Notes: generated by a model from the letters alone, not told the origin. A stretch of DNA of 64,000 nt from Acidimicrobiales bacterium (GCA_016845305.1 JAERSW010000042.1:17923-81922), one strand, 5' to 3'. Shown: positions 46,203 through 63,814, counted from the first letter of the stretch. Made by a program: numbers and translations.

Positions 46203-46222
46203 GGTTAGCCAAACGGCTAACA
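46203..46222. promoter_or_regulatory. 20-bp palindromic operator, copy a (GGTTAGCCAAACGGCTAACA)
   Basis: Lies in the divergent region between the acyl-CoA synthetase (start 46109) and ferredoxin-P450 (start 46263). Same motif as at 57319, 57341, 57416, 60741 and 63795. Confidence 0.7.
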
Positions 46223-46262
46223 ACCCCGGGCATCCGGGTCGTCCGAGGGAGGGACGCCGCCG

Positions 46263-46460
46263 ATGAAGATCGTGATCGACGCCGAGAAGTGCGAGGGCCA
46301 CAGCCGCTGCTACTCGCTGGCCCCCGACCTGGTCGACGTGGACGACCTCGGCAACGCGCTGGTGCTCGGCGACGGCACCGTGCCCGAGGGCCTCGAGGAC
46401 AAGGCCCGGCTCATCGTCGACAACTGCCCCGAGTACGCCATCACCATCGAGGAGGACTGA
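46263..46460 (+). CDS. ferredoxin (single-cluster, P450 redox partner type)
   Basis: MKIVIDAEKCEGHSRCYSLAPDL...DNCPEYAITIEED. 65 aa, located 4 nt upstream of the P450. Confidence 0.88.
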   Translation: MKIVIDAEKCEGHSRCYSLAPDLVDVDDLGNALVLGDGTVPEGLEDKARLIVDNCPEYAITIEED

Positions 46461-46464
46461 ACCG

Positions 46465-47718
46465 ATGACCGACACGGCGGACGCCCACACCGACGAGGCC
46501 CCCGCTCCCGGCGGCCCTTGCCCGGTCACCGACCTGGCCACCGACTACGACATGTTCGACCCGGACTACCTCCGGGATCCCTTCTCGGCCTGGGCCGAGT
46601 TGCGGACCGAGGGCTGCCCCATCGCCCACACCGAGCGCTACGGCGGCTCGTGGCTGCCGACCCGCTACGACGACCTGCAGGCCCTGGCCAAGATGGTGCC
46701 CGAGCTGTCGTCGAAGTCGCCGATCGTGATCGACATGCCCGACGCGCTCGTCAAGGACGACGCCACCGGGTACAACGCGGCCGCCCCCATCAGCGCCGAT
46801 CCGCCCGAGCAGAGCTGGACGCGCCGGGCGCTGCTCCCCCACTTCACCCCCAAGGGCGTGATGAAGGATCGGGAGTACACCGAGCGGCTCTGCCACGAGC
46901 TCATCGACGGCTTCATCGACGACGGCCGGTGCGACGCCGCGGTCGACTACGCCCAGCAGATCCCGCCGCGCGTCATCGCCCGCAAGCTGGGCGTCGACGA
47001 GGGCATGGTGGACGACTTCATCGAGTGGGTCCGCGGCGTGCTCGAGCTCGGCCTCCAGCAGCCCGAGCTCCGGGCCAAGTACCGCGACGTCATCCGGGAG
47101 TTCTTCGCCGCCGAGGTGGCCGACCGCCGGGCCAACCCGAAGGACGACCTCATCACGGCGCTGTGCCAGACCGAGCACGAGGGCGAGCTGCTGCCCGACG
47201 AGGTGGTCATCGGCATGTGCAACCTGCAGCTGGTGGCCGGCATCGACACCACCTGGTCGTCGATCGGCTCCGCGCTGTGGCACTTCGCCGGCAACGAGGA
47301 CGACCGTCGCCGCATGGTGGCCGAGCCCGAGCTGTGGGACACCGCCGTCGAGGAGCTGCTGCGCTTCTACGCCCCGGTCACCATGGCCCGCAACGCCGCC
47401 GAGGACGTCGAGTACGGCGGGATCACGTTCAAGAAGGGCGACAAGATCCTCATGAACTTCCCGGGCGCCAACCACGACCCGGACCACTTCGAGGATCCCC
47501 ACGAGGTACAGCTGGACCGCCAGCGCAACCGGCACGTGGCCTTCGGCATCGGCATCCACCGCTGTGCCGGGTCGAACCTGGCCCGCATGGAGATGGAGGT
47601 GGCGCTCAAGACGTGGTTCGAGCGCATCCCCGAGTTCACGCTGTCCGACCCGGACGCCGTGACGTGGGCCGGCGGCCAGGTCCGCGGGCCGCGCATCATC
47701 CCCGTCACCTTCGGCTAG
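46465..47718 (+). CDS. cytochrome P450
   Basis: 417 aa with AGIDTT (I-helix), ELLR (ExxR) and FGIGIHRCAGSNLA (heme-thiolate loop). Confidence 0.93.
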   Translation: MTDTADAHTDEAPAPGGPCPVTDLATDYDMFDPDYLRDPFSAWAELRTEGCPIAHTERYGGSWLPTRYDDLQALAKMVPELSSKSPIVIDMPDALVKDDATGYNAAAPISADPPEQSWTRRALLPHFTPKGVMKDREYTERLCHELIDGFIDDGRCDAAVDYAQQIPPRVIARKLGVDEGMVDDFIEWVRGVLELGLQQPELRAKYRDVIREFFAAEVADRRANPKDDLITALCQTEHEGELLPDEVVIGMCNLQLVAGIDTTWSSIGSALWHFAGNEDDRRRMVAEPELWDTAVEELLRFYAPVTMARNAAEDVEYGGITFKKGDKILMNFPGANHDPDHFEDPHEVQLDRQRNRHVAFGIGIHRCAGSNLARMEMEVALKTWFERIPEFTLSDPDAVTWAGGQVRGPRIIPVTFG

Positions 47719-47728
47719 GGGTCACGCC

Positions 47729-47789
47729 CGTTCCGGAGCGCTCGCCGCTCCGGGGCCGGGGACTCGTTCCGGAGCGCTCGCCGCTCCGG
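47729..47789. repeat. two identical 25-bp hairpin-forming repeats between convergent genes (bidirectional terminator or REP-like unit)
   Basis: CGTTCCGGAGCGCTCGCCGCTCCGG occurs at 47729-47753 and again at 47765-47789. Each contains CCGGAGCG-CTCGC-CGCTCCGG (8-bp stem). Confidence 0.85.
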
Positions 47790-47798: not shown

Positions 47799-50129
47799 CT
47801 ATTGCGCCACGGACTCGGCGTGCAGCATCCCGGCGGCCACGGCCGCACGGGTGGCCTCGTCGACGCCGGTCAGCACCTCCACGGTGACGCCGTGGATGGT
47901 CGCCGTGCACGCGAAGCCGTGGGGGTACGGCCCCACCGGTGACGCGGTGTCGACGCCGACGTCGAACGTCTCGCCACCCATCGAGTAGACGACGGGCACC
48001 GTCCGGTCCAGGCGGGCCTGGCCCACGACGCGTCCGTCGACGGCCAACGTCGCCGTCCCGCCGGCGGCGAACCCGCCGTCGGAGTCGAACAGCACCGCCA
48101 CCTCGTGGGGCCCCGGTCCCAGCGGGACGTCCGCGGCCACCGTGGTGCGCTCGTGGCCGTAGAGGTTGTAGTGCCAGGTGGGCCGGCCCTCGTCGAGGTA
48201 GATCGTCCAGCCGTTGAAGCTGCCGCCGTGGCTCACGACGACACCCTCGGGTATCCCCCCGCCGGCCGGGACCTCGAGGTCGCAGGTGATGCGGTACGAA
48301 CGGTTCTTGGTGTTGAGCACGGTGCGCTCCGGCATGCGGACGTGCGCCGTGGTGTAGGTCATGCGGGTCACGCCCGCCGGCACCGACGGGGCCCGGGCCG
48401 CCGGATCCAGGTTCGGCGTGGCGTCGCGCAACGGGTAGACGCCGTTGCGGCGGCACTCGGCGTCGAACAGCTCCTGCATCTCGGCGAGGCGCTCGGGCTG
48501 CTCGTCGGCCAGGTCGCGACCCTGCGAGAAGTCGTCGCGCAGGTCGTAGAGCTCCCACCGCTCCTGGGGGCCGTCGAACGGCGCCGACCCGAACCGCTCC
48601 CACGGGACCCGACCGTGGAAGCACGAGGCCATGAAGCCGTCGTGGTACAGGCCGCGGTTGCCCATCATCTCGAAGTACTGGGTGCGCCGCCCCTCGACGC
48701 CCGGGTCGTCGAAGGCGTCCAGCATCGACATGCCCTCCACGGGCATCTGCTCGATCCCGTTCACGTGCGTCGGCGCCTCGACGCCCGCCGCGGCGAGGAT
48801 GGTCGGGGCCAGGTCGACCACGTGGTGGAACTGGTCGCGCAGGCCGCCGGCGTCGGTGATGCGCCGCGGCCACGACACCGCCAGGCCGTTGCGGGTCCCC
48901 CCGAAGTGCGACGCCACCTGCTTCATCCACTGGAACGGGGCGTCCAGCGCCCACGCCCAGCCCACGTTGTAGTGGCACTCGCTGCGGACCGTGCCCATGT
49001 CGTCGAGGTGCTCGAGCAGGAACTCCGGGTCCTCCTCCACCCCGTTCTGCAGGGCGGGCAGCGACCACGTCCCGTGGATGCGGCCCTCGGCCGACGCCCC
49101 GTTGTCGCCGGTGACGTAGACGAAGAGGGTGTCCTCCCACTCGCCCAGGTCGTCGATGGCGTCGATGAGGCGGGCCACCTGGGCGTCGGTGTGGGCGAGG
49201 AACGCGGCGTACACCTCCATGAGCCGTCGGGCCACCGGCTTGTACCGGTCCGGGTACTCGTCCCACGACGGGATGACGTCCGGCCGGGCGGTGTTCGCGG
49301 TGGCCGGCGGGATCACGCCCATGGCCAGCTGGCGTTCGAAGATGGACTGGCGCAGGTCGTCCCACCCGTCGTCGAAGGCGCCGCGGTAGGCGTCCAGCCA
49401 GGCGTCGGGCACGTGCAACGGCGTGTGGACGGCGCCCGGCGCGAAGTAGCAGAACCACGGCTTGTCGGGGCGGTGGGCCCGGACCCGTTGGATCCACTCG
49501 ATGGCCTTGTCGGCCATGTCCTCGGTGAGGTGGTAGTCGTCGCGGCCCTCGTAGGGGGCGATCGGGGTGGTCTGGTCGTAGAGGTCGGGTTCGAACTGCG
49601 ACGTCTCGGCGCCGGGGAAGCCGTAGAAGCGGTCGAAGCCGAGGCCGGTGGGCCACCGGTCGAACGGTCCGGCCGGGCCCATCTCCCAGATCGGGGTGAG
49701 GTGGCCCTTGCCGAACATGCCGGTCGTGTAGCCGTTCTGGCGCAGCACCTCGGCCACGGTGGCCGCCTCGCGGGGGATGACGGAGTCGTAGGCCGGGAAC
49801 GAGTTGGCCGCCTCGGTGATGCGGCCCATGTGGACGGTGTGGTGGTTGCGGCCCGTCAGCAGCGTGGCCCGGGTGGGGGCGCAGATGGCGGTGGTGTGGA
49901 ACCGGTTGAACCGCAGGCCGTCGGCGGCCACCCGTTCGAGGCCGGGCGCGGCGACCGGACCGCCGAAGCTGGAGAACGCCCCGAAGCCGACGTCGTCGAG
50001 CAGGACCACGACCACGTTGGGCGCCCCGTCGGGGGCATGGTCGAGGTCGAGCGGCACCGGGTCGCAGTCCTCGGTGAGCCGGCCGATGGTGCCGCCGTAG
50101 GCCGTGGTGGGTCGGGGGATGGCGGTCAT
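47799..50129 (-). CDS. arylsulfatase (type I sulfatase, formylglycine-dependent)
   Basis: Internal ATG (cat 50127-50129): MTAIPRPTTAYGG...NVVVVLLDDVGFGAFSSFGG...FHTTAICAPTRATLLTGRNHH (C-x-P-x-R). 776 aa. Confidence 0.9.
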   Translation of the reverse strand: MTAIPRPTTAYGGTIGRLTEDCDPVPLDLDHAPDGAPNVVVVLLDDVGFGAFSSFGGPVAAPGLERVAADGLRFNRFHTTAICAPTRATLLTGRNHHTVHMGRITEAANSFPAYDSVIPREAATVAEVLRQNGYTTGMFGKGHLTPIWEMGPAGPFDRWPTGLGFDRFYGFPGAETSQFEPDLYDQTTPIAPYEGRDDYHLTEDMADKAIEWIQRVRAHRPDKPWFCYFAPGAVHTPLHVPDAWLDAYRGAFDDGWDDLRQSIFERQLAMGVIPPATANTARPDVIPSWDEYPDRYKPVARRLMEVYAAFLAHTDAQVARLIDAIDDLGEWEDTLFVYVTGDNGASAEGRIHGTWSLPALQNGVEEDPEFLLEHLDDMGTVRSECHYNVGWAWALDAPFQWMKQVASHFGGTRNGLAVSWPRRITDAGGLRDQFHHVVDLAPTILAAAGVEAPTHVNGIEQMPVEGMSMLDAFDDPGVEGRRTQYFEMMGNRGLYHDGFMASCFHGRVPWERFGSAPFDGPQERWELYDLRDDFSQGRDLADEQPERLAEMQELFDAECRRNGVYPLRDATPNLDPAARAPSVPAGVTRMTYTTAHVRMPERTVLNTKNRSYRITCDLEVPAGGGIPEGVVVSHGGSFNGWTIYLDEGRPTWHYNLYGHERTTVAADVPLGPGPHEVAVLFDSDGGFAAGGTATLAVDGRVVGQARLDRTVPVVYSMGGETFDVGVDTASPVGPYPHGFACTATIHGVTVEVLTGVDEATRAAVAAGMLHAESVAQ

Positions 50130-50185
50130 CGGCGGGCCGGTTCCTCGCTGGAGTGGAGTCGGGTGGGAAGAAGTCGGGTGGTGGG

Positions 50186-51484
50186 TCAGACGCTGCCGAC
50201 CGGACCGAAGGTACCTGCCGACCGCAGCTCGATGATCCGTCCGGCGGAGAGGCCGATCTCGGCCAGCACCGCATCGGTGTGCTCGCCCAACCCCGGCGAC
50301 GGTCCGGCCAGGCCGGTGGGTGCGGCGCCCAGGGCCACCGGCATGCCAGCCGTCGTGTAGCGACCGAAGGTCGGATGGTCCAGCTCGACGACGAACCCGT
50401 TGGCCCGGACCTGGGGGTCGTCGAGCGCCTCGTCGGGCAGGTTGTAGCGACCGCACGGGTAGCCCGCGGCGCGCAGGTCGGCCAACCACTGTTCGGTGGT
50501 CCGTTCGGCGAAGCATCGCTCGGCGGCATCCACGACGGCCAGGAACTCCGGCGACCCGGCCGACGCGTCCCTCGGCGGCCGCTCCACCCCGGTGACCTCG
50601 TGGAACCTGGCGTGGAGGCCCGGGGAGAGTCCGGCGACCGACACCAGGCCGTCGGACGTGGCGTACGTCCGGAAGTACAGCCGGAACGCCGTCTGGCCCT
50701 GGAGGGCCGACCCCTCGTAGAGGTCGCGCTGTTCGTCGAACCCGCCGCCATCGGCCCGTAGGTCGGCCAGGGCCGAACGGTCCGCCTCGTCCTGGTCGGC
50801 CAGGGCCTCGAACCGGTGGAGCACCGCGGTGCCCAACCCGAGGGCGGTCGACAGCAGGGAGGTGTCGACCCGCTGGCCCTCGCCGGTCCGGTCGCGGTGT
50901 CGGAGGGCGGCCAGGACGCCCAGGGCCGAGACCATGCCCGTCCCGAAGTCGTTGACGGCCGGACGGGTGGGCAGGGGCACGCCGTCCGACGACCGGTTCA
51001 TGAGGAAGCCGGCGCCGCTCAGCCCCTGCACCAGGACGTCGTAACCACCCTCGTCGGCCGCCGGCCCTTCGGGCCCGAACGGGGTGTGGGTCAGGTGGAC
51101 CAGCGTGGGGTCGACGGTCCGGGCATGGTCCCAGCCGATCCCGTAGCGGTCGAGGTCCGATCCCTTGACCCCCACGATGGCCACGTCGGCCCAGCGGAAC
51201 AGGCCGTCGCGTACCTCGGGGGCACCGTCGGCCCGGAGGTCCAGGACCATGCTCCGCTTGCCCGGGTTGATCGTGGCGTAGGCCCGGGCCTCGCCCGGTC
51301 CGAGGTCGGCCAGGCGACGCATGGCGTCCCCCTCCGGTGGTTCGACCTTGACGACGTCGGCCCCCATGCCGGCCAGCAGGCGGCCGCAGTACGGGACCGC
51401 CGCGTTCTGGGCGAACTCCACCACCCGGATCCCGTCCAGGACGCCCGGCGTGGATCCACCACCGTCCGGACGGGGGTCAGGCAC
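50186..51484 (-). CDS. family III CoA-transferase (CaiB/BaiF)
   Basis: GTG 51482-51484 overlaps the upstream stop region. GVLDGIRVVEFAQNAAVPYCGRLLAGMGADVVKVEPPEGD... Confidence 0.88.
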   Translation of the reverse strand: MPDPRPDGGGSTPGVLDGIRVVEFAQNAAVPYCGRLLAGMGADVVKVEPPEGDAMRRLADLGPGEARAYATINPGKRSMVLDLRADGAPEVRDGLFRWADVAIVGVKGSDLDRYGIGWDHARTVDPTLVHLTHTPFGPEGPAADEGGYDVLVQGLSGAGFLMNRSSDGVPLPTRPAVNDFGTGMVSALGVLAALRHRDRTGEGQRVDTSLLSTALGLGTAVLHRFEALADQDEADRSALADLRADGGGFDEQRDLYEGSALQGQTAFRLYFRTYATSDGLVSVAGLSPGLHARFHEVTGVERPPRDASAGSPEFLAVVDAAERCFAERTTEQWLADLRAAGYPCGRYNLPDEALDDPQVRANGFVVELDHPTFGRYTTAGMPVALGAAPTGLAGPSPGLGEHTDAVLAEIGLSAGRIIELRSAGTFGPVGSV

Positions 51485-52532
51485 CGACGGATCCCAGGGT
51501 GCCGACCGGCGCACCGCCCAGCATCGGACCACTGGTGTGGAGGTGGCAGGCCACCTCGCCGCCGGCCAGGGTCGGGGTGAACTCGGGGAACGACTCCCGA
51601 CAGACGTCCATCACGTGCGGGCAGCGGTCGGCGAAGGGACAGCCGTCCTCCGGCGCGTTGCCGACCGACCCGGCCGTGCCGATGGTCAGCGCCCGGCGAC
51701 GGGCCGACCGCCCGGTCTGGACCTCCGGATCGGGATCGGGGATCGAGGCCAGGAGGAGTTCGGTGTAGGGATGGGCCGGGGCGTCACAGATCCCGTCGGA
51801 CGGCCCCGTCTCCACGATCCGGCTGTGGTACATCACGGCGATCCGGTTGCACACGTGGCGCACCACGGCGAGGTCGTGGGCGATGAACAGGTAGGCCGCC
51901 GACGTCTCCCGCTGGAGTCGCTCCAGCAGGTTGATGACCTGGCTCTGGGTCGACACGTCGAGCGCCGAGACGGGTTCATCGAGCACCAGGAGGTCCGGGT
52001 CGGTGGCCAGGGCACGGGCCACGGCGATCCGCTGGCGCTGCCCTCCCGAGAACTCGTGGGGGTACCGGTTCAGGTGGTGGCGCTGGAGGCCGACCTGCTC
52101 GAGCAGGTCGCCGGCCCGGTCCTGGCGGGCCGCTCCGGACAGGCCGGCATGGATCCGCAGCGGCTCGCCCACGATGTCGCCCACCACCATCGACGGGTTC
52201 AGCGAACCCACCGGGTCCTGGAACACCACCTGGACGGCTCGACGGAACGACCGGGGGACCGATCCCTCGAACCCCGTGACGTCGAAGTCGCCCACCCGGA
52301 TCCGGCCGGACCGGGGCCGGATGAACCGGAGCACGGCCCGTCCGATGGTGGTCTTGCCCGAACCCGACTCACCGACCAGCCCCAGCGTGTCGCCCCGGGC
52401 GATGCTCAGGCTGACGTGCTGGACGGCCCGCACGTCGGGCAGTCGCTGCCAGGGCAGGAACCCCCGTCCACCCGGGAAGGTGATGCTGAGATCGTCGATC
52501 TCCAGGACGAGATCGTCGGCCGGACCGGTCAC
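51477..52532 (-). CDS. ABC transporter ATP-binding protein (DppF/OppF type)
   Basis: [27 protein letters not shown] and LVLDEPVSALD, plus the C-terminal oligopeptide-type extension with Cys residues. Confidence 0.92.
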   Translation of the reverse strand: MTGPADDLVLEIDDLSITFPGGRGFLPWQRLPDVRAVQHVSLSIARGDTLGLVGESGSGKTTIGRAVLRFIRPRSGRIRVGDFDVTGFEGSVPRSFRRAVQVVFQDPVGSLNPSMVVGDIVGEPLRIHAGLSGAARQDRAGDLLEQVGLQRHHLNRYPHEFSGGQRQRIAVARALATDPDLLVLDEPVSALDVSTQSQVINLLERLQRETSAAYLFIAHDLAVVRHVCNRIAVMYHSRIVETGPSDGICDAPAHPYTELLLASIPDPDPEVQTGRSARRRALTIGTAGSVGNAPEDGCPFADRCPHVMDVCRESFPEFTPTLAGGEVACHLHTSGPMLGGAPVGTLGSVGA

Positions 52533-54454
52533 GATGCCGCCCCTCCGTGGGCCCGGACGCCGCGCAGCACGACCTCACCGGCCCGGATGCACCGGACCGA
52601 CGAGGCCCCGACCGTCTGCAGGGGCACCGGGCCGACCCGACAGGCGTCTCCGGCATGGGCGCACCGATCGGCGAAATGACAGTGGTCGGGCCACTCCCAG
52701 GGCGGCGGGACGACCCCCGGGATGGTCGGGAGCTCGCCCGACCGGGCCTCGTTGCGGGGAATGGCCCGGATGAGTCCCTCGGTGTAGGGGTGCTGCGGGT
52801 CGGCGAACACCTCGGTCAGCCGACCGGTCTCCACGATCTCTCCGGCGTACATGACGGCCACCCGGTCGGCCAGGTCGGCGACCACCCCGAGGTCGTGGGT
52901 GATGAGCAGGACCGAGACCCCGAGGTCCCGGCTGAGGTCGCCCACCAGGTCCAGGATCTGGCCCTGGACGGTCACGTCCAGGGCGGTGGTCGGCTCGTCG
53001 GCGATCAGGAGCTTCGGTTCACAGGCCAGGGCCATGGCGATGACCACCCGCTGGGCCATCCCGCCGGAGAACTGGTGGGGATAGGCGTCGATCCGGCGAC
53101 CCGGATCGGGGATCCCGACCAACTCCATCAACTCCACGACCCGGGCCCGGGCCTGGCGGCGACCCATGCCCAGGTGCACCTCGAGGGGCTCGGCCACCTG
53201 GCGGCCCACCGTGTAGGCCGGGTTCAGCGCGGCGGACGGCTCCTGGAAGATCACCCCGATCTCGTGCCCCCGGATCCGGCGGAGCTCGTCGAAGTCCAGC
53301 CCCACCAGCTCGCGCCCGTCGAGGCCGATCGACGCCGCCGAGGCCAGCCCCGGATCGGGCACCAGCCCCATGATCGACATGGCGGTGATGGACTTCCCGG
53401 ATCCCGACTCGCCGACGAGGGCCATCACCTCTCCCCGACCGATGTCCAGGTCCACGCCGGAGACCACCGAGACGTCCTCGGTCTCGCCGGGCCGCGGGAA
53501 CCGGACGGACAGGTTCCGGATGGTGAGCAGTGCATCGTCCGACGGGGGGACCGGGTCCGACCCGGGATCCACGGCCTCGACGTCGCCGACCCCGACCCGA
53601 CCGCCACGGGCCTCCCGGGCGAAGGCGTCCCGCAGCCCGTCGCCGAACACGTTGAAGGCGATGACGGTCAGGAACACGGCGATCCCCGGGGGGACGGCCG
53701 GCCAGAAGCTCTGGTCGATCGAGTCCTGGGCGTCGCGCAACATCCGCCCCCAACTGGCCTGGTGCGCGCTGGCCCCGATGCCCAGGAAGCTGAGGGCCGC
53801 CTCGGCCAGCACCGCCTGGGCGAACAGGAGCGTGGTCTGGACGATGAGGGGCGGCGCGATGTTCGGGAGGATGTGCTTCCACATGATCCGGCGATCGGTG
53901 GCGCCGGCGGCCCGGGCGCCATCGACGTAGAGCTCCTCGCGGGCCGCGAACACCTCGGCCCGGGTGAGGCGGGTGATGATCATCGAGTACACGACGCCGA
54001 TGGCGAACATGGCCGTGGTCAGGCCGGTCCCGACCGCGGCGATGATGGCCATGGCCATGACCACGGCGGGCACGGCCACCACGGTCTCCACGAAGCGCAT
54101 GACGATGCGGTCCACCCACCCGCGGAAGTAGCCGATGACCAGGCCGAGGGGGACCCCGACGACCAGGGCGATGAGCACCGCCTCGGCGCCGGCGAACAGG
54201 GCGTACCGGGCGCCGTAGAGCAGTCGGGTGAAGATGTCCCGACCGACCAGGTCCGTCCCGAGGAGGTACTCCCCGAACGGAGGGAAGAGGAAGTCCTGGA
54301 AGCGGGTGGCCACGTTGGGATCGTGCGGGGTGAGGAAGCGAGCGCCCGCCGCCACCAGGACCAGCACGACCAGGTACCCGCCCCCGACCAGCGAGACCCG
54401 GTTCCTGAGGAACCGCGACCAGAAGCGGCTCCGCGCCGACTGGTGGGCGCTCAT
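52529..54454 (-). CDS. fused ABC permease (DppC type) and ATP-binding protein (DppD type)
   Basis: ATG 54452-54454 overlaps the upstream stop (ATGA). The N-terminal roughly 300 aa is a permease (...[23 protein letters not shown]...). The C-terminal half has [26 protein letters not shown] and [11 protein letters not shown]. Confidence 0.88.
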
Positions 54455-55380
54455 CCGGGCCGCACCTTCGGATTGAGCCACGCATAGGCCAGGTCGAGGA
54501 CGATGTTCACCATGACGACCACGAACGTGGTGACCATCACGAAGGCCAGGATGATCGGCGTGTTCTTCCGCAACACGGCATCCACGCCGAGGCTGCCCAG
54601 GCCGGGCACGTTGAACACCGATTCGACGAAGATGGCGCCACCGATGAGGGCCGAGGTCTGGAAGCCGGCCAGCGAGACAATGGGAATCGCCGCGTTGCGC
54701 AGGGCGTGGCGCCGGATGACCCGCCGGACGGGGAGTCCCTTGGCCAGGGCGGTCCGGATGTAGTCCTTCTGGAGGACGGCGATCATCGACGACCGGGACT
54801 GCCGGGCGATGGCCGCGGCGGCCGACAGGCCGAGGGCGATGCACGGGAGTACCAGCGAGTGGAGCCACCCGCCGATCGTCTCGGTCCGGGTGTTGGACCA
54901 GATGGCGGGGAACCACCGGACCTGGACGGACAGGAAGTAGGCCAGCAGGATGGCCGCCCAGAAGTTGGGGATGGCCATGCCGAACGAGGACACCACGGTC
55001 ACGATCCGGTCCGGAAGCCGTCCGGCCTTCAGGGCAGCCAGGATTCCCAGACCGACCCCGGAGACCAGGGCGATGGCCAGGGCACCGAAGACCAGGGTCA
55101 GCGTCACCGGGGCCCGGTCGCCGAACATGGTCAGGACCGACTCACCGGTGAACCAGTCGGTCCCCAGGTCGAAGCGCACCACGTCGGTGAGCCAGTCGCC
55201 GTACTGCACGAGCAGCGACCGATCCAGGCCCAGTTCAGCGCGCTTCTCGGCGATCGACGCCAGGGAGGCATCCTCTCCCAGCAGGGCCGCTGCCGGATCC
55301 ACCGGGTTGAACTGGATGAGGAAGAACACCAGCGTTCCGGTGAGGAACATGAGCGGAATGGCGGCGAGCAGTCGGCTCAC
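54451..55380 (-). CDS. ABC transporter permease (DppB type)
   Basis: 309 aa: ...DYIRTALAKGLPVRRVIRRHALRNAAIP... (EAA loop). Confidence 0.92.
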   Translation of the reverse strand: MSRLLAAIPLMFLTGTLVFFLIQFNPVDPAAALLGEDASLASIAEKRAELGLDRSLLVQYGDWLTDVVRFDLGTDWFTGESVLTMFGDRAPVTLTLVFGALAIALVSGVGLGILAALKAGRLPDRIVTVVSSFGMAIPNFWAAILLAYFLSVQVRWFPAIWSNTRTETIGGWLHSLVLPCIALGLSAAAAIARQSRSSMIAVLQKDYIRTALAKGLPVRRVIRRHALRNAAIPIVSLAGFQTSALIGGAIFVESVFNVPGLGSLGVDAVLRKNTPIILAFVMVTTFVVVMVNIVLDLAYAWLNPKVRPG

Positions 55381-55498
55381 CAGGAGGCGTAGCAGGACAC
55401 CTTCTCCTTCAGGCTCCGTCGGGCCGGGGTGATCGGGCGAGCGATGGGCGGGGACGCAGCAGCGTCCCCGCCCATCATCTCACCGGAGGGGTCCGGTC

Positions 55499-57318: not shown

Positions 57319-57360
57319 GGTTAGCCAACTGGCCAAGAAGTATTAGCCACTTGGCCCATC
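57319..57360. promoter_or_regulatory. two adjacent degenerate copies of the palindromic operator (b1 GGTTAGCCAACTGGCCAAGA; b2 TATTAGCCACTTGGCCCATC)
   Basis: Lies in the divergent region between the SBP/ABC operon (start 57250) and the acyl-CoA dehydrogenase (start 57444). Confidence 0.55.
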
Positions 57361-57415
57361 CTGTCAACTCCCGGGCACGGATTCCCGGGAGCCCGACGGA
57401 CGATGGGTTGGCAGG

Positions 57416-57435
57416 GGTTGGCCAATCGGCTAATA
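57416..57435. promoter_or_regulatory. palindromic operator, copy c (GGTTGGCCAATCGGCTAATA)
   Basis: Ends 8 nt before the acyl-CoA dehydrogenase ATG (57444). The TAATAC inside it could serve as the -10 of a leaderless transcript. Confidence 0.65.
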
Positions 57436-57443
57436 CTGGCCCC

Positions 57444-58673
57444 ATGGTTCCTGACCCCATGGTCGAGCCCACCGCCCACGGGGACGTCCCGTCGATCGAG
57501 GCGTTCCGCGCCGAGGTCCGTGCCTTCCTCCGGGAGTACGACGCCCGCCCGGCCACCCCGGGGCGCTCCCGCCGGGACCGGACCAGGGCCTTCCTGGCCG
57601 CCCGCTACGACGCCGGCCTCGGGGCACTCGACTACCCGGTGGCCGACGGTGGCCGGGGCCTGGACCGGCACCACGTCGACGTCTATCGCACCGAGGCCGC
57701 CCACCGGACCGCCGACGACGGCGGCTCGGGCTTCGGCATCGGGCTGGACATGTGCCTGCCGACCATCCGGGACCACGGGAGCCCCGACCTCCGTCGACGC
57801 TTCCTGGCCCCCGGGCTACGTGGCGACGAGCACTGGTGCCAGCTCTACAGCGAGCCCGGCGCCGGCTCGGACCTGGCCGGACTGACCACCCGGGCGGTCC
57901 TCGACGGCGACGAGTGGGTGGTCACCGGGCAGAAGGTCTGGACCTCGGGTGCCGAACACGCCGACTTCGGCATCCTGCTGGCCCGCACCGACTGGGACGT
58001 CCCCAAGCACGCCGGCGTGTCCATGCTGGTGCTCCCCATGGACCAGCCGGGCGTCGAAGTCCGGGCCCTCCGCCAGATGACCGACGTAGCCCACTTCAAC
58101 GAGGTCTTCATCGACGAGGCCCGGGTCCCCGCGGACTGGGTCGTCGGCGAACCGGGCGACGGCTGGCGTATGGCCGTGGCCCTCCTGGCCCACGAGCGGT
58201 CCTCGATCGGCAAGGGCGGTGGCCGCCAACCGGTCCCCGTCGATCGGCTCGTGGACCTGGCCCGTGCCACCGGACGGGCCGACGACCCGGTGGTCCGCCA
58301 GGACCTGGCCCGACTGGCCACCGGGGCGAGGATCATCGAGTGGCTGAACCTCCGGTCGGGCATCCACCCGTCGGTCACCAAGCTCTGGCGGACCCGGCAG
58401 GGACGCGACGCCGCCGACGTGACCGCCCGCCTGGCCTACCCGGGCGGTGTCGCCTGGGAGGGGCCCCGAATGGGCACCACCGAACCGGGCCACTACGCCG
58501 ATCCCGACGGCTCCCACTGGGCCTACGGGATCTGCGACGCACGTGCCCTCTCGCTGGGTGGCGGGACCGACGAGGTCCAACGCAACACCCTCGGCGAGCG
58601 GGTCCTGGGCCTACCCCGGGAGCCGGCCTCCGACCGGGACGTCCCGTTCAGCCAGGTTCCGAGGAACGCCTGA
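57444..58673 (+). CDS. acyl-CoA dehydrogenase family protein
   Basis: MVPDPMVEPTAHGDVPSIEAFRAEVRAFL...WCQLYSEPGAGSDLAGLTTRA...GQKVWTSGA...GGGTDEVQRNTLGERVLGLP. Confidence 0.9.
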   Translation: MVPDPMVEPTAHGDVPSIEAFRAEVRAFLREYDARPATPGRSRRDRTRAFLAARYDAGLGALDYPVADGGRGLDRHHVDVYRTEAAHRTADDGGSGFGIGLDMCLPTIRDHGSPDLRRRFLAPGLRGDEHWCQLYSEPGAGSDLAGLTTRAVLDGDEWVVTGQKVWTSGAEHADFGILLARTDWDVPKHAGVSMLVLPMDQPGVEVRALRQMTDVAHFNEVFIDEARVPADWVVGEPGDGWRMAVALLAHERSSIGKGGGRQPVPVDRLVDLARATGRADDPVVRQDLARLATGARIIEWLNLRSGIHPSVTKLWRTRQGRDAADVTARLAYPGGVAWEGPRMGTTEPGHYADPDGSHWAYGICDARALSLGGGTDEVQRNTLGERVLGLPREPASDRDVPFSQVPRNA

Positions 58674-59280
58674 ACGACTCCCGTTCGCCCCGGGCCGCCC
58701 TCCCGGGGTCCAGGCCCAGGGACAGGGCCCGCAGGATCAGCACCAGCCGCTCCTCGACCCGCTCGCCCATGTCCGGGACCCCACCGTCGCGCTCCACCCA
58801 GGGGTCCACCGTGGAGGCGAACAGGCAACGGGCCAGGTGGAACACCGTGGCGATGCCCACGTCGACCCGGACCTCGGTCTCGTCGTCGTCGATCCGCGCC
58901 TCGAGGGCATGGCCGACGGCCACGTCCAGCGTGGGATGGGCGACGTGGGTCCGGTCGGCCTCGCCGGACAACGACGCGTAGGCCAGGGCCCGCACGAAGT
59001 CGGGCCACCGCCGCAGGGAGAAGGGGGCCACCCGGGGGGAGTCGTCCAGCCCCTCGCCTGCTGCGTACTCGGCGGTGAGCCGGGCGAACCCCTCGCGCAG
59101 GACGGCGTCCTTGCCCCCGAAGTAGTGGTGGACCAGCCCGTAGTTCACCCCGGCCTCCTCGGCCAGGCGTCGACCGGAGATCCGTTCGGGTGGGGCACCG
59201 CCGAGGAGCCGGGCTGCCGCGGCCACCAGCGCCTCGCGGACCGCCTCGGCACCCCGGGGCCGGACCGACCCCCCGGTCAC
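58648..59280 (-). CDS. TetR-family transcriptional regulator (paralog 1)
   Basis: GTG 59278-59280 overlaps the upstream stop. ...ISGRRLAEEAGVNYGLVHHYFGGKDAVL... (HTH). Confidence 0.85.
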   Translation of the reverse strand: MTGGSVRPRGAEAVREALVAAAARLLGGAPPERISGRRLAEEAGVNYGLVHHYFGGKDAVLREGFARLTAEYAAGEGLDDSPRVAPFSLRRWPDFVRALAYASLSGEADRTHVAHPTLDVAVGHALEARIDDDETEVRVDVGIATVFHLARCLFASTVDPWVERDGGVPDMGERVEERLVLILRALSLGLDPGRAARGERESFRRSSEPG

Positions 59281-59906
59281 CGGTCGACCTCGAGTCCGAC
59301 CGACCGGTACAGGGACCGGAGGACGGCGAGGAACCGCTGCTGGATCATCGCCCCGTCGACCTCCGGATCGAGGCCCAGCCCCCGGGCGTTGTGCTCGACG
59401 AACACCGGCCATCCCAGCTGGAGCAGCACGATGGCTGCCACGGTCGCCCGGTGGTGGACGGGGTCGCCGTCGGAGTGGGCCTCGTCGGCCAACCGGAGCA
59501 TGGCATCGAGCACCGGGCGGGAGGCGTCCTCGTCGTCGTAGCCACCCTCGAGGGCCACGTGGGCGGCGAAGCCGAAGATCTCCCGGTCCGAGATGGCCTG
59601 CTCGACCGGGATGGGTCGGGTCCCTCCGGCCATCGCCTCGTCGACCAGCCGGCTCCCGTGCCGGCCGCGGGCCTCGGTCAGGAGGTCGCGGGAGGTCTCG
59701 AAGTAGTAGTGGACGAGCCCGTAGTTGACCCCGGCCTCCTCGGCCACCTCCCGACCGGTGACCGTCGACGGCGGCCGCTCGGCCATCAGCCGGATGGCGG
59801 CGTCCAGCAGGGCGGTGCGCGAGGAGACCTCCAACCCCTCTGGCGACCCCCCTGGGGCCCCGTCGTGGGACCCGCCGCGGGACCCGGCGCCCGGTCGGGC
59901 CATCAA
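59277..59906 (-). CDS. TetR-family transcriptional regulator (paralog 2)
   Basis: ...VTGREVAEEAGVNYGLVHYYFETSRDLL... (HTH). Overlaps the upstream enoyl-CoA hydratase stop. Confidence 0.85.
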   Translation of the reverse strand: MMARPGAGSRGGSHDGAPGGSPEGLEVSSRTALLDAAIRLMAERPPSTVTGREVAEEAGVNYGLVHYYFETSRDLLTEARGRHGSRLVDEAMAGGTRPIPVEQAISDREIFGFAAHVALEGGYDDEDASRPVLDAMLRLADEAHSDGDPVHHRATVAAIVLLQLGWPVFVEHNARGLGLDPEVDGAMIQQRFLAVLRSLYRSVGLEVDR

Positions 59907-60697
59907 GCCCTCCCTGGTCGGAGGCGACCACCGGCCGCAAGCAGCGCGGCACCCCGGCCGATCCGGTCGACGCCGCCCACCTCCGGGGCGACCATCGCCG
60001 CGGCGTGGGCCTTCATGGTGCGACCGGCTCCGGTGGGGAAGCCGGCCAGCTCGCGGGCCAGGTTCCGGGCCGATGCCAGGACCTCGTCGTCGGGCACCAC
60101 GTCGAGGGCGATCCCCAGGCGCTGGAGTTCCGGGCCGGTGAACCGACGACCGGTGAGGGTCAGCTGGTGGGCCACCAAGAGGGGGTGGCGTTCCAGCAAC
60201 CAGGCCAGGTTCATGGCCGCCGGCATGCCCTGGCGCACCTCGCCGACCTGGAGGAACGCCTCGCGGCCCACCACCAGCAGGTCACAGGCCAGGGCGAAGG
60301 CCGCCCCGCCGTTGATGGCGAACCGCTCGAGCGCGCCGACCACCGGGACCGGACAGTCGGCGATGGCCCGGTGGGCCGAGACGAGGGAGGCCGAGGCGGT
60401 GGGCAGCCAGTCCGGTGGCGGTTCGGCTCCGTACTCCTTGAGGTCCAACCCAGAGCAGAACCCACCCCCCGCACCGTGCAGGAGGACCACCCCGACGTCG
60501 TCGAGGTCGGCGACCGTGGTGAAGGCGGCGGCCAGGGCGTCCGACAGGGGACCGATCAGGGCGTTCTTCCGCTCCGGGCGGTTCAGGACGATGGTGGCCA
60601 GGCCGTCGACCACCTCGAGGAGGACCAACTCGCTGGGGGTCTGGATGCTGGAAGACGGGTCGCCATCGGTCTGGTCGGGGGCCTCGGGATGGGTCAT
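59903..60697 (-). CDS. enoyl-CoA hydratase/isomerase family
   Basis: IVLNRPERKNAL...VVLLHGAGGGFCSGLDLK...INGGAAFALACD. Confidence 0.88.
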   Translation of the reverse strand: MTHPEAPDQTDGDPSSSIQTPSELVLLEVVDGLATIVLNRPERKNALIGPLSDALAAAFTTVADLDDVGVVLLHGAGGGFCSGLDLKEYGAEPPPDWLPTASASLVSAHRAIADCPVPVVGALERFAINGGAAFALACDLLVVGREAFLQVGEVRQGMPAAMNLAWLLERHPLLVAHQLTLTGRRFTGPELQRLGIALDVVPDDEVLASARNLARELAGFPTGAGRTMKAHAAAMVAPEVGGVDRIGRGAALLAAGGRLRPGRA

Positions 60698-60740: not shown

Positions 60741-60760
60741 GGTTAGCCAAATGGCTAACC
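60741..60760. promoter_or_regulatory. palindromic operator, copy d (GGTTAGCCAAATGGCTAACC, perfect 9+2+9 palindrome)
   Basis: Lies between the echA-tetR-tetR operon (start 60697) and the acyl-CoA dehydrogenase (start 60792). Confidence 0.75.
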
Positions 60761-60791: not shown

Positions 60792-61955
60792 TTGACCTCT
60801 CCCGACATCCTCGACCTGGACTTCGACGCCCACCTCGACGTGGTCCGGCGCCTCACCGACGAGGAGTTGATCCCCGGCGAAGCCGAGATGACCGATCTGG
60901 GCGAGGTCCCGCCCCGACTGGTCGAACGCCTCGTCGCATGCGGGCTGTTCGGCATCACCCTCCCCCGGTCATGGGGCGGCCTCGGGTGGACCATGGAACA
61001 GCAGGTCCGCCTGACCTTCGAGTTCACCCGGGCGTCGCCCGTCTACCGCTCGCGGTTCTCGACCACCATCGGCCTGTGCTCCCAGATCCTCCTCGACCAC
61101 GGCACCGACGAGCAGCGGGACCGGTACCTACCGGACATGGCCACCGGCCGGTGCGTGACGTCGTTCGCCCTGACCGAGCCCGGTGCGGGGTCCGATGCCA
61201 CCGCGGTGGCCACCACGGCGGTCCGGGACGGCGAGCAGTACGTCATCGACGGCCACAAGCGCTTCATCACCAACGGCGCCTGGGCCGACCTGCTCATCGT
61301 GTTCGCCCGGACCGGGGAGGGCTTCTCGGCCATCCTCGTCCCAGCCGACACCGAGGGCGTGACGGCCACGCTCCCCACCCGGATGAACGGCCACGAGGCG
61401 GGCCCGGTGGCCGAGCTCTCCTTCACCGACGCCCGCGTCCCGACGGCCAACCTCATCGGCGACGAGGGTGCGGGCCTGACCCTGGCCCTCCGGGGGATCA
61501 ACCACGCCCGCACGCACGTGGCGGCCACCGCGGTGGGCTCTGCCACCCGCCTGCTCGGCGAGGCCGCCGAGCACGCCCGGACCCGCCACCAGTTCGGCCG
61601 ACCCATCGCCGAGTTCGGCGTCATCGAGGCCATGCTCGGTCGGAGCCGAGCCGAGCTCGAGGCAGCCCGAGCCCTCGTCCTGGACTGCGCCAGGGCCTGG
61701 GACGCCGGGAGCATCCCGTGGACGAGGATCGCCGCGGCCAAGCTGGTGGCCACCGAGACGGCCAACCGGATCGCCGACCGGGCCGTCCAGGTCCTGGGCG
61801 GTGACGGCATCGTCGGCGACCACCCGGTGGGGCGCCTGTGGCGCGACGTCCGGGCGCTCTCGATCTACGAGGGCACCACCCAGATCCACGAACGGAACCT
61901 GGCCCGCCACCTCCTCAAGACGGTGGGAGACGGACACCCGGTCTTCGACGACTGA
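60792..61955 (+). CDS. acyl-CoA dehydrogenase
   Basis: TTG start. ...FALTEPGAGSDA...GHKRFITNG...IYEGTTQIHERNLARHLL. Confidence 0.92.
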   Translation: MTSPDILDLDFDAHLDVVRRLTDEELIPGEAEMTDLGEVPPRLVERLVACGLFGITLPRSWGGLGWTMEQQVRLTFEFTRASPVYRSRFSTTIGLCSQILLDHGTDEQRDRYLPDMATGRCVTSFALTEPGAGSDATAVATTAVRDGEQYVIDGHKRFITNGAWADLLIVFARTGEGFSAILVPADTEGVTATLPTRMNGHEAGPVAELSFTDARVPTANLIGDEGAGLTLALRGINHARTHVAATAVGSATRLLGEAAEHARTRHQFGRPIAEFGVIEAMLGRSRAELEAARALVLDCARAWDAGSIPWTRIAAAKLVATETANRIADRAVQVLGGDGIVGDHPVGRLWRDVRALSIYEGTTQIHERNLARHLLKTVGDGHPVFDD

Positions 61956-61970
61956 CCGACCGGGATCCGA

Positions 61971-63050
61971 TCAGTCGGAGACCCGGCCCAGCACCTGCTC
62001 AGCCTCGGCCACCAGCCGGTCGATGATGGTGGCCACCGGCTCCTGGTCGGTGAGGTGGACCACGCCCTGCCCGGCACCCTCGTGCACCAGGGGTGCGACC
62101 TCGTGGCGCATCACCTGGCCCAGGAGGTCGCCGATGAGGATGTCCTGGTGGGGCATCTTCAGCGGCTCCGGCGCACCCTCGGCCGACCACTCGTCACTCC
62201 ACGACGACCGCAGCATCCGGAAGGTCTTGCCGCTCACCGACCGGCTGATGACGGTGTCGGTCACGCCGGCGGCCAGCAGCTTGTCGAGCAGCACCGGCGA
62301 CGGGGCCGCCTCCTCGGACGCCAGCAGCGCCGTGCCGATCCAGACGCCGTCGGCGCCGAGGGCCATCGCCGCGGCCAGGTGGCGGCCCGTGGCCACCCCA
62401 CCGGCGGCCAGCACCGGGCGACCGCCGGCCGCCTCGACCACCAGCGGGACCAGGGTGAAGGTCCCGATGGGCCCGGTGTGCCCGCCCGAGTCGGTGCCCT
62501 GGGCGACGAGGATGTCGGCGCCGGCCCGGATGGCCGTCTCGGCGTGCGCCGGGCGACCCACGAGGCTCACGATCATCGAGCCCTGCTCGTGGGCCTGCTC
62601 GACGGCCCACGTCGGCGAGCCCACGCCGAGGGCCAGCAGGGGGATCCGGTGGTCCATGACCACCGCCAGCTGGTCGCGGGCCGTCTCCTCGCTGCGGACG
62701 AAGCGGGACCGCATGCCCGGAAGGCCGTCGTCGGGCACCTCGTAGCGGTGGCGCATCCGCTCCACGAAGGCCACGTGGGCCTCCGGCAGCGTCGACTCGA
62801 TGGCCGACCGGTCGTCGGTCTCGGGCATGCCGGCGGGGATCACCAGGTCGACGCCCCACGGCAGGTCGCCGAGGGCAGCCTTCATCCGGCTGATCCCCTC
62901 CTCGATCTCCTCGGGCGTGCGCCGGGTACAGCCCCAGATGCCCACGCCCCCGGCCCGCGAGGCGGCGATGGCCACCTCGGGGTCCATGCCGAAGCCGAAG
63001 ATCGGCCGCTCGGCGCCCAGGAGGTCGCGGATGCGGGCTCCCATCGCCAT
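61971..63050 (-). CDS. nitronate monooxygenase (NMO/2-nitropropane dioxygenase-like FMN enzyme)
   Basis: ATG (cat 63048-63050): MAMGARIRDLLGAERPIFGFGM...ILVAQGTDSGGHTG...PVLAAGGVATGRHLAAAMALGADGVWIGT. Confidence 0.88.
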   Translation of the reverse strand: MAMGARIRDLLGAERPIFGFGMDPEVAIAASRAGGVGIWGCTRRTPEEIEEGISRMKAALGDLPWGVDLVIPAGMPETDDRSAIESTLPEAHVAFVERMRHRYEVPDDGLPGMRSRFVRSEETARDQLAVVMDHRIPLLALGVGSPTWAVEQAHEQGSMIVSLVGRPAHAETAIRAGADILVAQGTDSGGHTGPIGTFTLVPLVVEAAGGRPVLAAGGVATGRHLAAAMALGADGVWIGTALLASEEAAPSPVLLDKLLAAGVTDTVISRSVSGKTFRMLRSSWSDEWSAEGAPEPLKMPHQDILIGDLLGQVMRHEVAPLVHEGAGQGVVHLTDQEPVATIIDRLVAEAEQVLGRVSD

Positions 63051-63766
63051 CAGGCCACCGCCCCGACCACGGTGGCCAGGCCGCCCAGGCCGCAGAGGCC
63101 CAGGAGCATCGGCCGGAACAACGCCTTGTCGACCCAGCGGCGGAACGGGGGCGCCAGCACCAGCCCCACGACCGCCGACCCCATGACCAGGGCGCTGAGC
63201 TCGAGGTCGCGCGACGACAACGACCCGGTCACCACCAGGCGGAGCACCACCACCGCCGTCATGACGAGCACGAACGAGGCGAGGTTCGGACGCAGGACGT
63301 GGGGCGGATCGTCGTGGTGGACGATGGCGTACGGCGGACCGGGCAGGGCGGCCACCCGGAGCCCGAAGGCCACCAGCGACCCGGACAGCACCGACGCCCA
63401 CCGGCTGGCCACCGGACGCCACCCCGACGCCATGGCCGCCACCGAGACGACCACCAGGGCGCCCACGACGATCCGCAGCCCGCGTTCGGACAGCGCGGCG
63501 AGGGCCAGCTCGCCGGCCACCAGTCCCACCGGGGCGCCGAGCAGGCAGCGTCGCCACCGCACGGCGTCGAAGCCGGCGAACTCCCGGGTGACGTTGCGGA
63601 GGCCGACCACGACGCCCCCGACCATGAGGGGCAGCGGGACGAAGTCGGGATCGACGGCGAGCAGGAACGGCGCCGCCACCAGGGTGATGCCGATGCCGGC
63701 CGTGGCCTGCACGAGGGCACCGGCGGCGACGGCGACCACCACCACGACGATCTCGACCGGGGACAC
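63050..63766 (-). CDS. TauE/SafE-family sulfite/anion exporter membrane protein
   Basis: 238 aa with about 8 TM helices: MSPVEIVVVVVAVAAGALVQATAGIGITLVAAPFLL... Confidence 0.75.
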   Translation of the reverse strand: MSPVEIVVVVVAVAAGALVQATAGIGITLVAAPFLLAVDPDFVPLPLMVGGVVVGLRNVTREFAGFDAVRWRRCLLGAPVGLVAGELALAALSERGLRIVVGALVVVSVAAMASGWRPVASRWASVLSGSLVAFGLRVAALPGPPYAIVHHDDPPHVLRPNLASFVLVMTAVVVLRLVVTGSLSSRDLELSALVMGSAVVGLVLAPPFRRWVDKALFRPMLLGLCGLGGLATVVGAVA

Positions 63767-63794
63767 GCTGGGACCATAGCCCCGGAGGACACGG

Positions 63795-63814
63795 TGTTGG
63801 CCAAACGGCTAACA
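63795..63814. promoter_or_regulatory. palindromic operator, copy e (TGTTGGCCAAACGGCTAACA)
   Basis: Lies between the TauE-NMO operon (start 63766) and the alcohol dehydrogenase (start 63866). Confidence 0.65.

Follow-up and report, generated by a model that had tools for sequence, protein, structure and literature searches.

A predicted TetR operator regulon uniting sulfatase, cytochrome P450 and acyl-CoA metabolism genes in an Acidimicrobiales bacterium

Introduction

Which protein, if any, reads a 20-bp palindrome that recurs six times between positions 46203 and 63814 of a 64,000-nucleotide stretch of DNA from an Acidimicrobiales bacterium (GCA_016845305.1, JAERSW010000042.1:17923-81922)? 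This whole stretch, with a G+C content of 72%, is called the window throughout. Close homologues of the window TetR were annotated as metagenome-assembled genomes (MAGs) of Acidimicrobiales, several of them from marine surveys. The initial annotation took the palindromes for operators of a local regulon and two tandem TetR genes for its candidate repressors. Comparative evidence, namely conservation and a link between recognition helix and motif, supports this proposal: with a probability of about 0.8, the six palindromes serve as operators for the TetR-family proteins of two neighbouring genes (58648-59906). The cluster under the six operators covers about 21 kb and contains a sulfatase, a cytochrome P450 and breakdown genes of the fatty acid type.

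Results and Discussion

Six palindromes at divergent promoters

All six 20-bp sites were recovered from the window with the coordinates and sequences first described. They share a 16-bp core, TTRGCCA-NN-YGGCYAA, and the general operator form is TTAGCC(A/G)-WW-(T/C)GGCTAA, a TTAGCC-N4-GGCTAA palindrome. TetR repressors usually read short inverted repeats of 14-20 bp, and this 16-bp palindrome was kept in 50 non-redundant sites. The cores are listed below with their scores from a 20-bp weight matrix, which was built from 44 sites of other genomes and none of the window.

Operator a, 46205..46220, no strand: TTAGCCAAACGGCTAA, between the acyl-CoA synthetase operon (minus strand) and ferredoxin-P450 (plus strand); 31.6 bits
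Operator b1, 57321..57336, no strand: TTAGCCAACTGGCCAA, over the predicted start site of the minus-strand ABC/CoA-transferase/sulfatase operon; 26.8 bits
Operator b2, 57343..57358, no strand: TTAGCCACTTGGCCCA, weaker site, in the -35/-10 spacer and overlapping the -10 of the minus-strand promoter; 21.4 bits
Operator c, 57418..57433, no strand: TTGGCCAATCGGCTAA, in the spacer and overlapping the -10 of the plus-strand promoter of the acyl-CoA dehydrogenase gene ACAD1; 27.7 bits
Operator d, 60743..60758, no strand: TTAGCCAAATGGCTAA, consensus site, between ECH-TetR-TetR (minus strand; ECH, enoyl-CoA hydratase) and the acyl-CoA dehydrogenase gene ACAD2 (plus strand); 33.0 bits
Operator e, 63797..63812, no strand: TTGGCCAAACGGCTAA, between TauE-NMO (minus strand) and an alcohol dehydrogenase (plus strand); 29.0 bits

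As originally described, all six sites are intergenic and fall into four divergent regions, site d (60741-60760) is a perfect 9+2+9 palindrome, and the ATG at 57444 follows the end of site c after 8 nt. Against the lowest score of 21.4 bits for a true site, the seventh-best position across the 64 kb reached 5.6 bits and the best of 50 shuffles 14.4 bits; in shuffles of the window nothing matched even with 3 mismatches allowed. On the plus strand the hexamer TTAGCC has four copies, compared with about eight expected from composition, and all four lie inside sites. GGCTAA was counted five times, four times inside sites and once at 40049, so that the lone half-site noticed there in the initial annotation is indeed the sole copy outside. 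That annotation had also seen no site in the first part of the window; by weight-matrix scan the first 42 kb, which hold housekeeping genes, contain none.

Conservation across genomes

For comparison, contigs with TetR-2 homologues of 45-77% identity were used together with 15 loci found by scanning one genome per species (numbered L001 and upward below). The palindrome recurs at the same operon heads, next to the corresponding co-directional TetR pair, in about 20 genomes of related Acidimicrobiia, whose regulators are 45-77% identical to those of the window. Conservation in orthologous promoters, by which the operator proposal was to be judged, is thus observed, and the motif is found neither in the window's genes nor in the coding DNA of the related pair loci. 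The comparison contigs carry the same cluster in varied gene order. When loci L002-L028 were mapped against the window proteins, every site at up to 2 mismatches fell at an operon head: between alcohol dehydrogenase (ADH) and TauE with or without NMO, between ECH-TetR-2-TetR-1 and, where present, ACAD2, between ACAD1 and the sulfatase with or without a preceding CoA-transferase, and between ferredoxin-P450 and acyl-CoA synthetase. Orthologs of operator a head ferredoxin-P450 in L002, L014-L017 and L025-L027. The b1 sequence and its 22-bp offset from b2 are kept in L005, L006, L019 and L020, and an equivalent of d lies upstream of ECH in at least 14 genomes. Operator e has equivalents between ADH and TauE in L002, L005, L016, L017, L019, L025, L027 and L028.

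More distant Acidimicrobiia are without the sulfatase and TauE; they keep NMO-ECH-TetR-TetR and ACAD-P450-ferredoxin, with a site before each. Two cultured actinomycetes, Saccharopolyspora shandongensis (TTAGCCATTTGGCTAG) and Rhodococcus sp. SC4 (TTAGCCGTACGGCTAG), have the TetR pair and a site just upstream of ferredoxin-P450. Aligning the 57.3-kb region with four orthologous regions left as conserved islands the three operators, a TTGACAG -35 and the -10 hexamers, while the rest has diverged.

A recognition helix linked to the motif

The putative regulators are the second and third genes of a minus-strand operon.

59903..60697, minus strand: enoyl-CoA hydratase (ECH, Pfam), first gene of the regulator operon
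59277..59906, minus strand: TetR-2, upstream regulator, 208 residues, Pfam TetR_N, helix GVNYGLVHYYF
58648..59280, minus strand: TetR-1, downstream regulator, 210 residues, GTG start, helix GVNYGLVHHYF

Both proteins carry TetR_N (PF00440; E = 7e-11 and 3e-9) and are 33% identical to each other. A stretch of the form GR.LA.EAGVNYGL(V/I)H.YF, which includes the recognition helix, is invariant and common to both paralogs in every genome, although they are only about 30% identical overall. The start of TetR-2 overlaps the ECH stop by 4 nt. The GTG start of TetR-1 likewise shares 4 nt (GTGA) with the TetR-2 stop, the two open reading frames (ORFs) lying in different frames, and this overlap (NTGA) recurs in 15 of the 16 pair loci, both cultured actinomycetes included.

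Scanning one genome per species, 185,579 species in all, for the helix peptide yielded 74 loci with single, paired and fused TetRs from several phyla. Most belong to Acidimicrobiia (Ilumatobacteraceae, Microthrix and the sponge symbionts Ca. Poriferisodalis and Aldehydirespiratoraceae), others to Embleya, Mycolicibacterium komossense and Jongsikchunia and to MAGs of Myxococcota, Spirochaetaceae and Proteobacteria. Of the 59 single-gene and fused loci that do not belong to the pair group, 22 have TAGCC-N4-GGCTA within 400 bp upstream of the helix codons. Its density in these 59 loci was 1.24 per kb before the helix codons versus 0.06 per kb elsewhere, a 20-fold difference, and most of the remaining matches stood at fixed offsets that correspond to the start of a longer fused gene or to the next promoter. 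Helix and motif therefore travel together across phyla, which is the strongest evidence short of experiment that the TetR head reads the motif. In the window, one site (d) lies in the regulators' own promoter and five head adjacent operons. Because d heads ECH-TetR-2-TetR-1, the autoregulation suggested in the initial annotation is plausible.

Single-gene members deserve mention in their own right. The cultured Mycolicibacterium komossense DSM 44078 (L078:7874-8016) has a single-gene TetR with the head GVNYGLVF and three perfect TAGCC-N4-GGCTA sites upstream, the third of which contains the ATG of the TetR (TAGCCGCATGGCTA). Six loci of Ilumatobacteraceae and other Acidimicrobiales MAGs (L058, L060, L061, L062, L065, L072) carry a single-gene TetR with the same type of helix; a P450 operon with a sulfatase as its last gene is divergent from it, and one TTAGCC-N4-GGCTAA lies in between. 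These operons include an acyl-CoA synthetase between P450 and sulfatase in L058, L060 and L065, and a ferredoxin in L062 and L072. The same gene theme is thus found under single, split and fused regulators.

Promoter geometry

A promoter scan of the 57.3-kb region returned two promoter-like sites where none was expected.

57339..57367, minus strand: promoter-like site of the ABC-sulfatase operon, -35 TTGACA (57367-57362), 17-nt spacer, -10 AATACT (57344-57339)
57408..57437, plus strand: promoter-like site of ACAD1, -35 TTGGCA, 18-nt spacer, -10 AATACT (57432-57437)

The minus-strand promoter matches at 10 of 12 positions (0 expected in shuffles), and its TTGACAG -35 and its -10 are invariant in the orthologous alignment (A3). 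In both promoters the -10 is made up of the outer half of an operator and its flank (GGCTAATACT). Operator b2 occupies the minus-strand spacer and overlaps the -10, while b1 begins 3 bp past the -10, over the start site. What had been called a triple site before the ABC operon is therefore two plus one: b2 and b1 serve the minus-strand ABC-sulfatase promoter, c the plus-strand ACAD1 promoter. The idea of a leaderless ACAD1 mRNA may hold, with the proposed -10 TAATAC refined to AATACT and paired with the -35 TTGGCA; the ATG at 57444, which is 7 nt downstream of the end of the -10, with 6 nt in between, suggests such a transcript. A second in-frame ATG at 57459 is the start in the public gene call.

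At the other sites outward-facing hexamers were seen, TAACCT at 46207-46202 for a, TAACCT on both strands for d, and TAACAT at 63810-63815 for e. They resemble -10 elements, fit the actinobacterial TANNNT pattern and may act as such, and a T at the operator flank position is three-fold enriched across the 50 sites. One bound dimer could thus shut both divergent promoters. Several relatives have the start codon of the regulated gene at the operator centre, CC(A/G)(T/C)ATGG. The bound repressor would block RNA polymerase at eight promoters, that of its own ECH-TetR-2-TetR-1 operon included, since each of these has a site on its predicted -10 hexamer, its spacer or its start site. At the ABC/CoA-transferase/sulfatase promoter, two weaker sites 22 bp (two helical turns) apart would be filled cooperatively.

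Paired, fused and single regulators

In which form might the two proteins bind? A profile search was run against 1.84 billion representative proteins. Among the 25 best matches, 18 were fused two-module proteins, many of 360-450 residues with two matched stretches; they come from Acidimicrobiia and carry the same helix in both halves. DNA of such loci was taken from P0122 and P0274. The fused protein at L029 7350-8519 has two TetR_N stretches, and P0121 and others likewise consist of two modules. In 16 loci of the sponge-symbiont type the fused heads differ, GVNYAQIH in the N-terminal and GVNYGLIH in the C-terminal half, and the operators are asymmetric, TTAGCC-N4-GGCTGC, as expected if one N-head and one C-head read one operator. 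The fused loci have two asymmetric operators, one over the gene's own ATG and one heading an ABC operon. For example, in Ca. Poriferisodalis sp. (L029:7343-8519, NZ_OZ242363.1) a 389-residue double-TetR has its ATG at the operator centre, and the second asymmetric operator heads an operon of a solute-binding protein and ABC genes about 2.3 kb upstream. A double-TetR with an asymmetric operator was likewise observed in L030, L032, L034, L037, L043-L048, L050-L052 and L056. The structural model of P0121 (pLDDT 88, pTM 0.88) gave a single significant match in the PDB, which was Mce3R over its full length (E = 5e-7, TM-score 0.47-0.49). Hidden Markov models (HMMs) of the N- and C-half ligand domains placed TetR-2 with the N-half and TetR-1 with the C-half in L008, L010 and L012.

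Since the two genes overlap by 4 nt and the nearest non-pair relatives are fused and Mce3R-like in the model, we lean toward TetR-2 and TetR-1 forming a heterodimer. With confidence only a little above even, the pair may be an obligate heterodimer, a natural unfused double-TetR repressor in which identical heads are combined with two different ligand-domain halves that would form one asymmetric pocket. Each operator would bind two GVNYGL(V/I)H helices, most likely one from TetR-2 and one from TetR-1.

Less likely, in our view, is that the two proteins are separate homodimers which compete for the same operators, each with its own ligand; full induction would then need two signals, or one protein would dominate. 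A precedent is found in Streptomyces avermitilis, where the adjacent TetRs SAV576 and SAV577 protect the same sites and control a P450 gene; both are homodimers that compete, and neither pulled the other down (PMC4051647). This system, however, is divergent, 59% identical and found in one species, whereas the window pair is co-directional, with the 4-nt overlap in 15 of 16 loci. Outside the head its members share only about 30% identity, the two genes stay together in two actinobacterial classes, and their nearest non-pair relatives are fusions of two such modules. Besides this precedent, further observations count against the heterodimer. The window's identical heads and its symmetric operators with perfect palindromes fit homodimers equally well, and as single-gene members with the same helix and operator exist, homodimers presumably can bind. 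The 16 asymmetric-operator loci are close relatives and represent one or a few evolutionary events. Finally, the half-domain HMMs fitted only TetR-2 (N-half) in L013 and gave an ambiguous result in the window's own clade.

Other readings of the palindromes

Very improbable, in our view, is that a regulator from elsewhere in the genome binds the palindromes while the adjoining TetRs read a different operator. Leaving room for it, the window covers 64 kb of the source genome, and the link between operator and TetR is drawn from comparison. Yet the motif accompanies GVNYGL(V/I)H in Actinomycetota, Myxococcota and Proteobacteria, whether the TetR is single, paired or fused, it is usually located in the TetR's own promoter, and the half-site changes where one head changes; in the alignment of the pair's own promoter no further conserved motif was seen. 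Still more improbable are RNA hairpins (attenuators or stabilisers) or copies of a repeat of the repetitive extragenic palindromic (REP) or miniature inverted-repeat transposable element (MITE) type: each site can fold into a hairpin of 7-10 bp (z -1.4 to -4.2 for the four single sites, z = -6.3 for the b1-b2 region), but any palindrome folds, the arms are invariant over phylum-level distances with variation only in the spacer and no compensatory changes, the sites are located within predicted promoters or ahead of them, between divergent genes and not at 3' ends, Rfam gave no match at the sites, and no further copies turned up in the rest of the 64 kb or within genes in about 1 Mb of related loci. 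A dispersed REP/MITE repeat was rejected, as the six copies in 64 kb are all at divergent promoters and none is coding in the related pair loci.

Several points call for caution on the operator reading itself. We infer binding, repression and ligand release from comparison. Searching PDB sequences with the two TetRs and the family profile gave no close solved relative and no chain with a GVNYGL helix, and the literature search on the motif gave a paper on BkaR as the only relevant one. Full -35/-10 matches were found only in the 57.3-kb region, while a, d and e have only the TANNNT hexamers.

Genes of the cluster and a possible pathway

The four divergent intergenic regions head eight transcription units with 19 genes. 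Operator a serves ACS-ECH-epimerase (ACS, acyl-CoA synthetase) and ferredoxin-P450, b1 and b2 ABC-CoA-transferase-sulfatase, c ACAD1, d ECH-TetR-2-TetR-1 and ACAD2, and e TauE-NMO and ADH. Besides the genes given above, the following were found.

Operon 42778..46109, minus strand
44574-46109, minus strand: acyl-CoA synthetase
43817-44584, minus strand: enoyl-CoA hydratase
42778-43854, minus strand: NAD-dependent epimerase/3-beta-hydroxysteroid dehydrogenase-like protein
Two-gene unit 46263..47718, plus strand
46263-46460, plus strand: ferredoxin
46465-47718, plus strand: cytochrome P450
Six-gene operon 47799..57250, minus strand (Pfam)
55499-57250, minus strand: SBP_bac_5 binding protein, first gene
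54451-55380, minus strand: permease
52529-54460, minus strand: permease-ATPase fusion
51477-52532, minus strand: ATPase
50186-51532, minus strand: family-III CoA-transferase
47799-about 50150, minus strand: formylglycine-type sulfatase, last gene
Single genes and unit 61971..63766
57444..58673, plus strand: acyl-CoA dehydrogenase ACAD1, best family match a pimC-like large subunit, under the curated cut-off
60792..61955, plus strand: acyl-CoA dehydrogenase ACAD2 (Pfam)
63050-63766, minus strand: TauE-family anion exporter, in unit 61971..63766
61971-63056, minus strand: NMO/FabK-like flavoenzyme, in unit 61971..63766
63866..64000, plus strand: start of a zinc alcohol dehydrogenase cut by the window end; the whole gene is present in L001 (ADH_N, ADH_zinc_N)

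By Pfam the earlier gene calls are right, with one addition: the ATP-binding cassette (ABC) operon runs on into the family-III CoA-transferase and the sulfatase, which had been absent from that annotation and belong to the regulon. The four ABC genes (51477-57250) are missing from the closest orthologous clusters (e.g. L005:12438-13968), and in relatives the same double-operator promoter stands directly before CoA-transferase-sulfatase. An insertion behind the conserved b2/b1 promoter seems to have brought in the importer genes.

The gene content leads us to infer that the cluster serves the uptake and degradation of a hydrophobic compound carrying sulfate, for example an alkyl sulfate, a sulfated lipid or a sterol sulfate. 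Such a compound would be imported, freed of sulfate, oxidized by P450/ferredoxin and alcohol dehydrogenase, activated to its CoA ester and shortened by steps of the beta-oxidation type. Induction would proceed through ligand binding in the divergent C-terminal domains. CoA esters are the inducers of KstR, KstR2, FadR and Fad35R, and here, too, an acyl-CoA or another pathway intermediate is the most likely ligand, a CoA ester being likely. Some caution is called for, as no cluster enzyme had an NCBIfam match over the family cut-off. The substrate is fixed neither by the P450, which is about equally distant from P450cin, PksS, CYP125-like proteins and EryF, nor by the sulfatase, which is nearest to AtsA of P. 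aeruginosa. A literature search on Acidimicrobiia with sulfatase, P450 or sterol gave nothing useful.

Genes consistently near this regulator family are P450 and ferredoxin, acyl-CoA synthetase, dehydrogenases and hydratases, often also a sulfatase. Sponge-symbiont clusters add a TauD-family dioxygenase, an alkyl sulfatase of the metallo-beta-lactamase type and the same type of ABC importer. The cluster at L029:5199-14000, for instance, holds two P450s, a TauD-family dioxygenase (6440-7285), a metallo-beta-lactamase-type alkyl sulfatase (about 9801-11726), a formylglycine sulfatase and an Opp-type ABC importer, which points to the use of alkyl sulfates or sulfated lipids. Taken as one co-regulated unit, sulfatase, P450 and beta-oxidation genes point to sulfated-lipid or alkyl-sulfate breakdown by abundant marine and sponge-associated bacteria. 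The motif TAGCC-N4-GGCTA and the helix GVNYGL(V/I)H now allow regulon prediction in uncultured Acidimicrobiia and some cultured actinomycetes, and these ideas are testable in the cultured carriers Saccharopolyspora shandongensis, Rhodococcus sp. SC4 and Mycolicibacterium komossense. If the heterodimer reading is true, the family would also be one dedicated to clusters for sulfate esters, P450s and acyl-CoAs in marine and sponge-associated Acidimicrobiia.

Comparison with known TetR systems

The motif had been thought to differ from the KstR and KstR2 boxes, and this is borne out. TTAGCC-N4-GGCTAA does not match the KstR box TnnAACnnGTTnnA. It is also unlike the BkaR box and unlike the KstR2 box AnCAAGnnCTTGnT (PMC3068626). 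KstR2 of mycobacteria and Rhodococcus is autoregulated and controls about 15 genes of late cholesterol degradation through three palindromic sites in divergent regions beside the regulator (PMC3068626). The window contains a probable TetR-operator regulon that is KstR2-like in logic, a local TetR system with few palindromic sites in divergent promoters, some 15-20 CoA-dependent catabolic genes and autoregulation, and whose motif and subfamily were not found described in the literature. KstR2, however, is a homodimer from a single gene, whereas the window has two regulator genes. No meaningful sequence relation extends past the helix-turn-helix (HTH; KstR2 chain at E = 1.2e-4 in the PDB profile search), and the proteins are not orthologous. 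In contrast to the KstR2 pathway, the window is without ring-degradation genes and has a sulfatase, a P450 and an ABC importer.

Mce3R (Rv1963c) of M. tuberculosis is the one solved double-TetR, in which modules M1 and M2 form an intramolecular pseudo-dimer with one ligand cavity on a non-palindromic site (PMC11667970). Like Mce3R, relatives of the window pair are single chains with two TetR modules. Mce3R controls lipid-metabolism genes and its own gene, as is predicted for the window pair. While Mce3R has two different HTHs and a 25-bp non-palindromic site, the window modules are encoded by separate genes, their heads are identical and the operator is palindromic, so the pair is not itself a double TetR-family regulator, although its relatives are. 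The fused proteins of sponge symbionts combine non-identical heads with an asymmetric operator, as in such double regulators. Similarity between the window TetRs and Mce3R is limited to the HTH (E = 1.3e-5), and they belong to a different lineage. Should the heterodimer be real, the family would record the rise of Mce3R-type repressors from ordinary homodimers, and its series of single, split and fused regulators with matching operators would suit the study of how the asymmetric double-TetR evolved. The main finding is ordinary in kind and clean; this series with its operator changes is the part of specialist interest.

SAV576 and SAV577 resemble the window pair as two adjacent, similar TetR genes with a P450 nearby; they repress the neighbouring P450 gene and each other via the same palindromes, with the motif CCRTACRVYGTATGS (PMC4051647). 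What sets them apart, beyond orientation and identity, is that they were shown not to heterodimerise. TetR paralogs reported as heterodimers on shared sites are AvaR1/AvaR2 and ScbR/ScbR2 (PMC5744401). Searching the literature on tandem and heterodimeric TetRs gave SAV576/SAV577 and AvaR1/AvaR2 as relevant cases. The heterodimers of AvaR1/AvaR2 and ScbR/ScbR2 are facultative and exist beside homodimers, their genes are not translationally coupled, and they are receptors of butyrolactone-type signals and not catabolic regulators.

BkaR/Fad35R (Rv2506) reads an operator with outer GTTA...TAAC, present twice in the divergent promoter of an acyl-CoA metabolism cluster (PMC3920632). An operator of the BkaR type was rejected for the window, since GTTAnT-N4-AnTAAC (16 bp) has other inner bases and another half-site spacing than GTTAGCC-N4-GGCTAAC (18 bp), the window site being 2 bp longer. 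An intergenic site at MSMEG_3414/3415 of M. smegmatis was a weak BkaR candidate that BkaR did not bind, and the authors suggested an unidentified regulator (PMC3920632, Table 1). This site begins with GGTTAGCCAAAAC and matches one half-site of the window motif (GGTTAGCCA), a half match only.

Other features of the window

The housekeeping genes in the first 42 kb include cytochrome bd and aa3 oxidases, a seryl-tRNA synthetase and tRNAs. Three terminal-oxidase loci lie within 30 kb (4251-6649, 25631-27682 and 30185-31681); they encode cytochrome bd subunits I and II, a COX1 with a fused subunit-IV-like tail and a second, weaker COX1-like gene. The genes for tRNA-Glu, tRNA-Asp and tRNA-Phe are clustered at 35469-35759. 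Two ORFs, 12363-13163 and 14109-14636, have a coding-like third-position G+C and no Pfam match. The tRNA-Lys gene (7612-7687) overlaps the start of the stop-to-stop frame of a 1119-residue BNR/sortilin-repeat protein (7634-10993), and the true start of this gene is therefore located further downstream.

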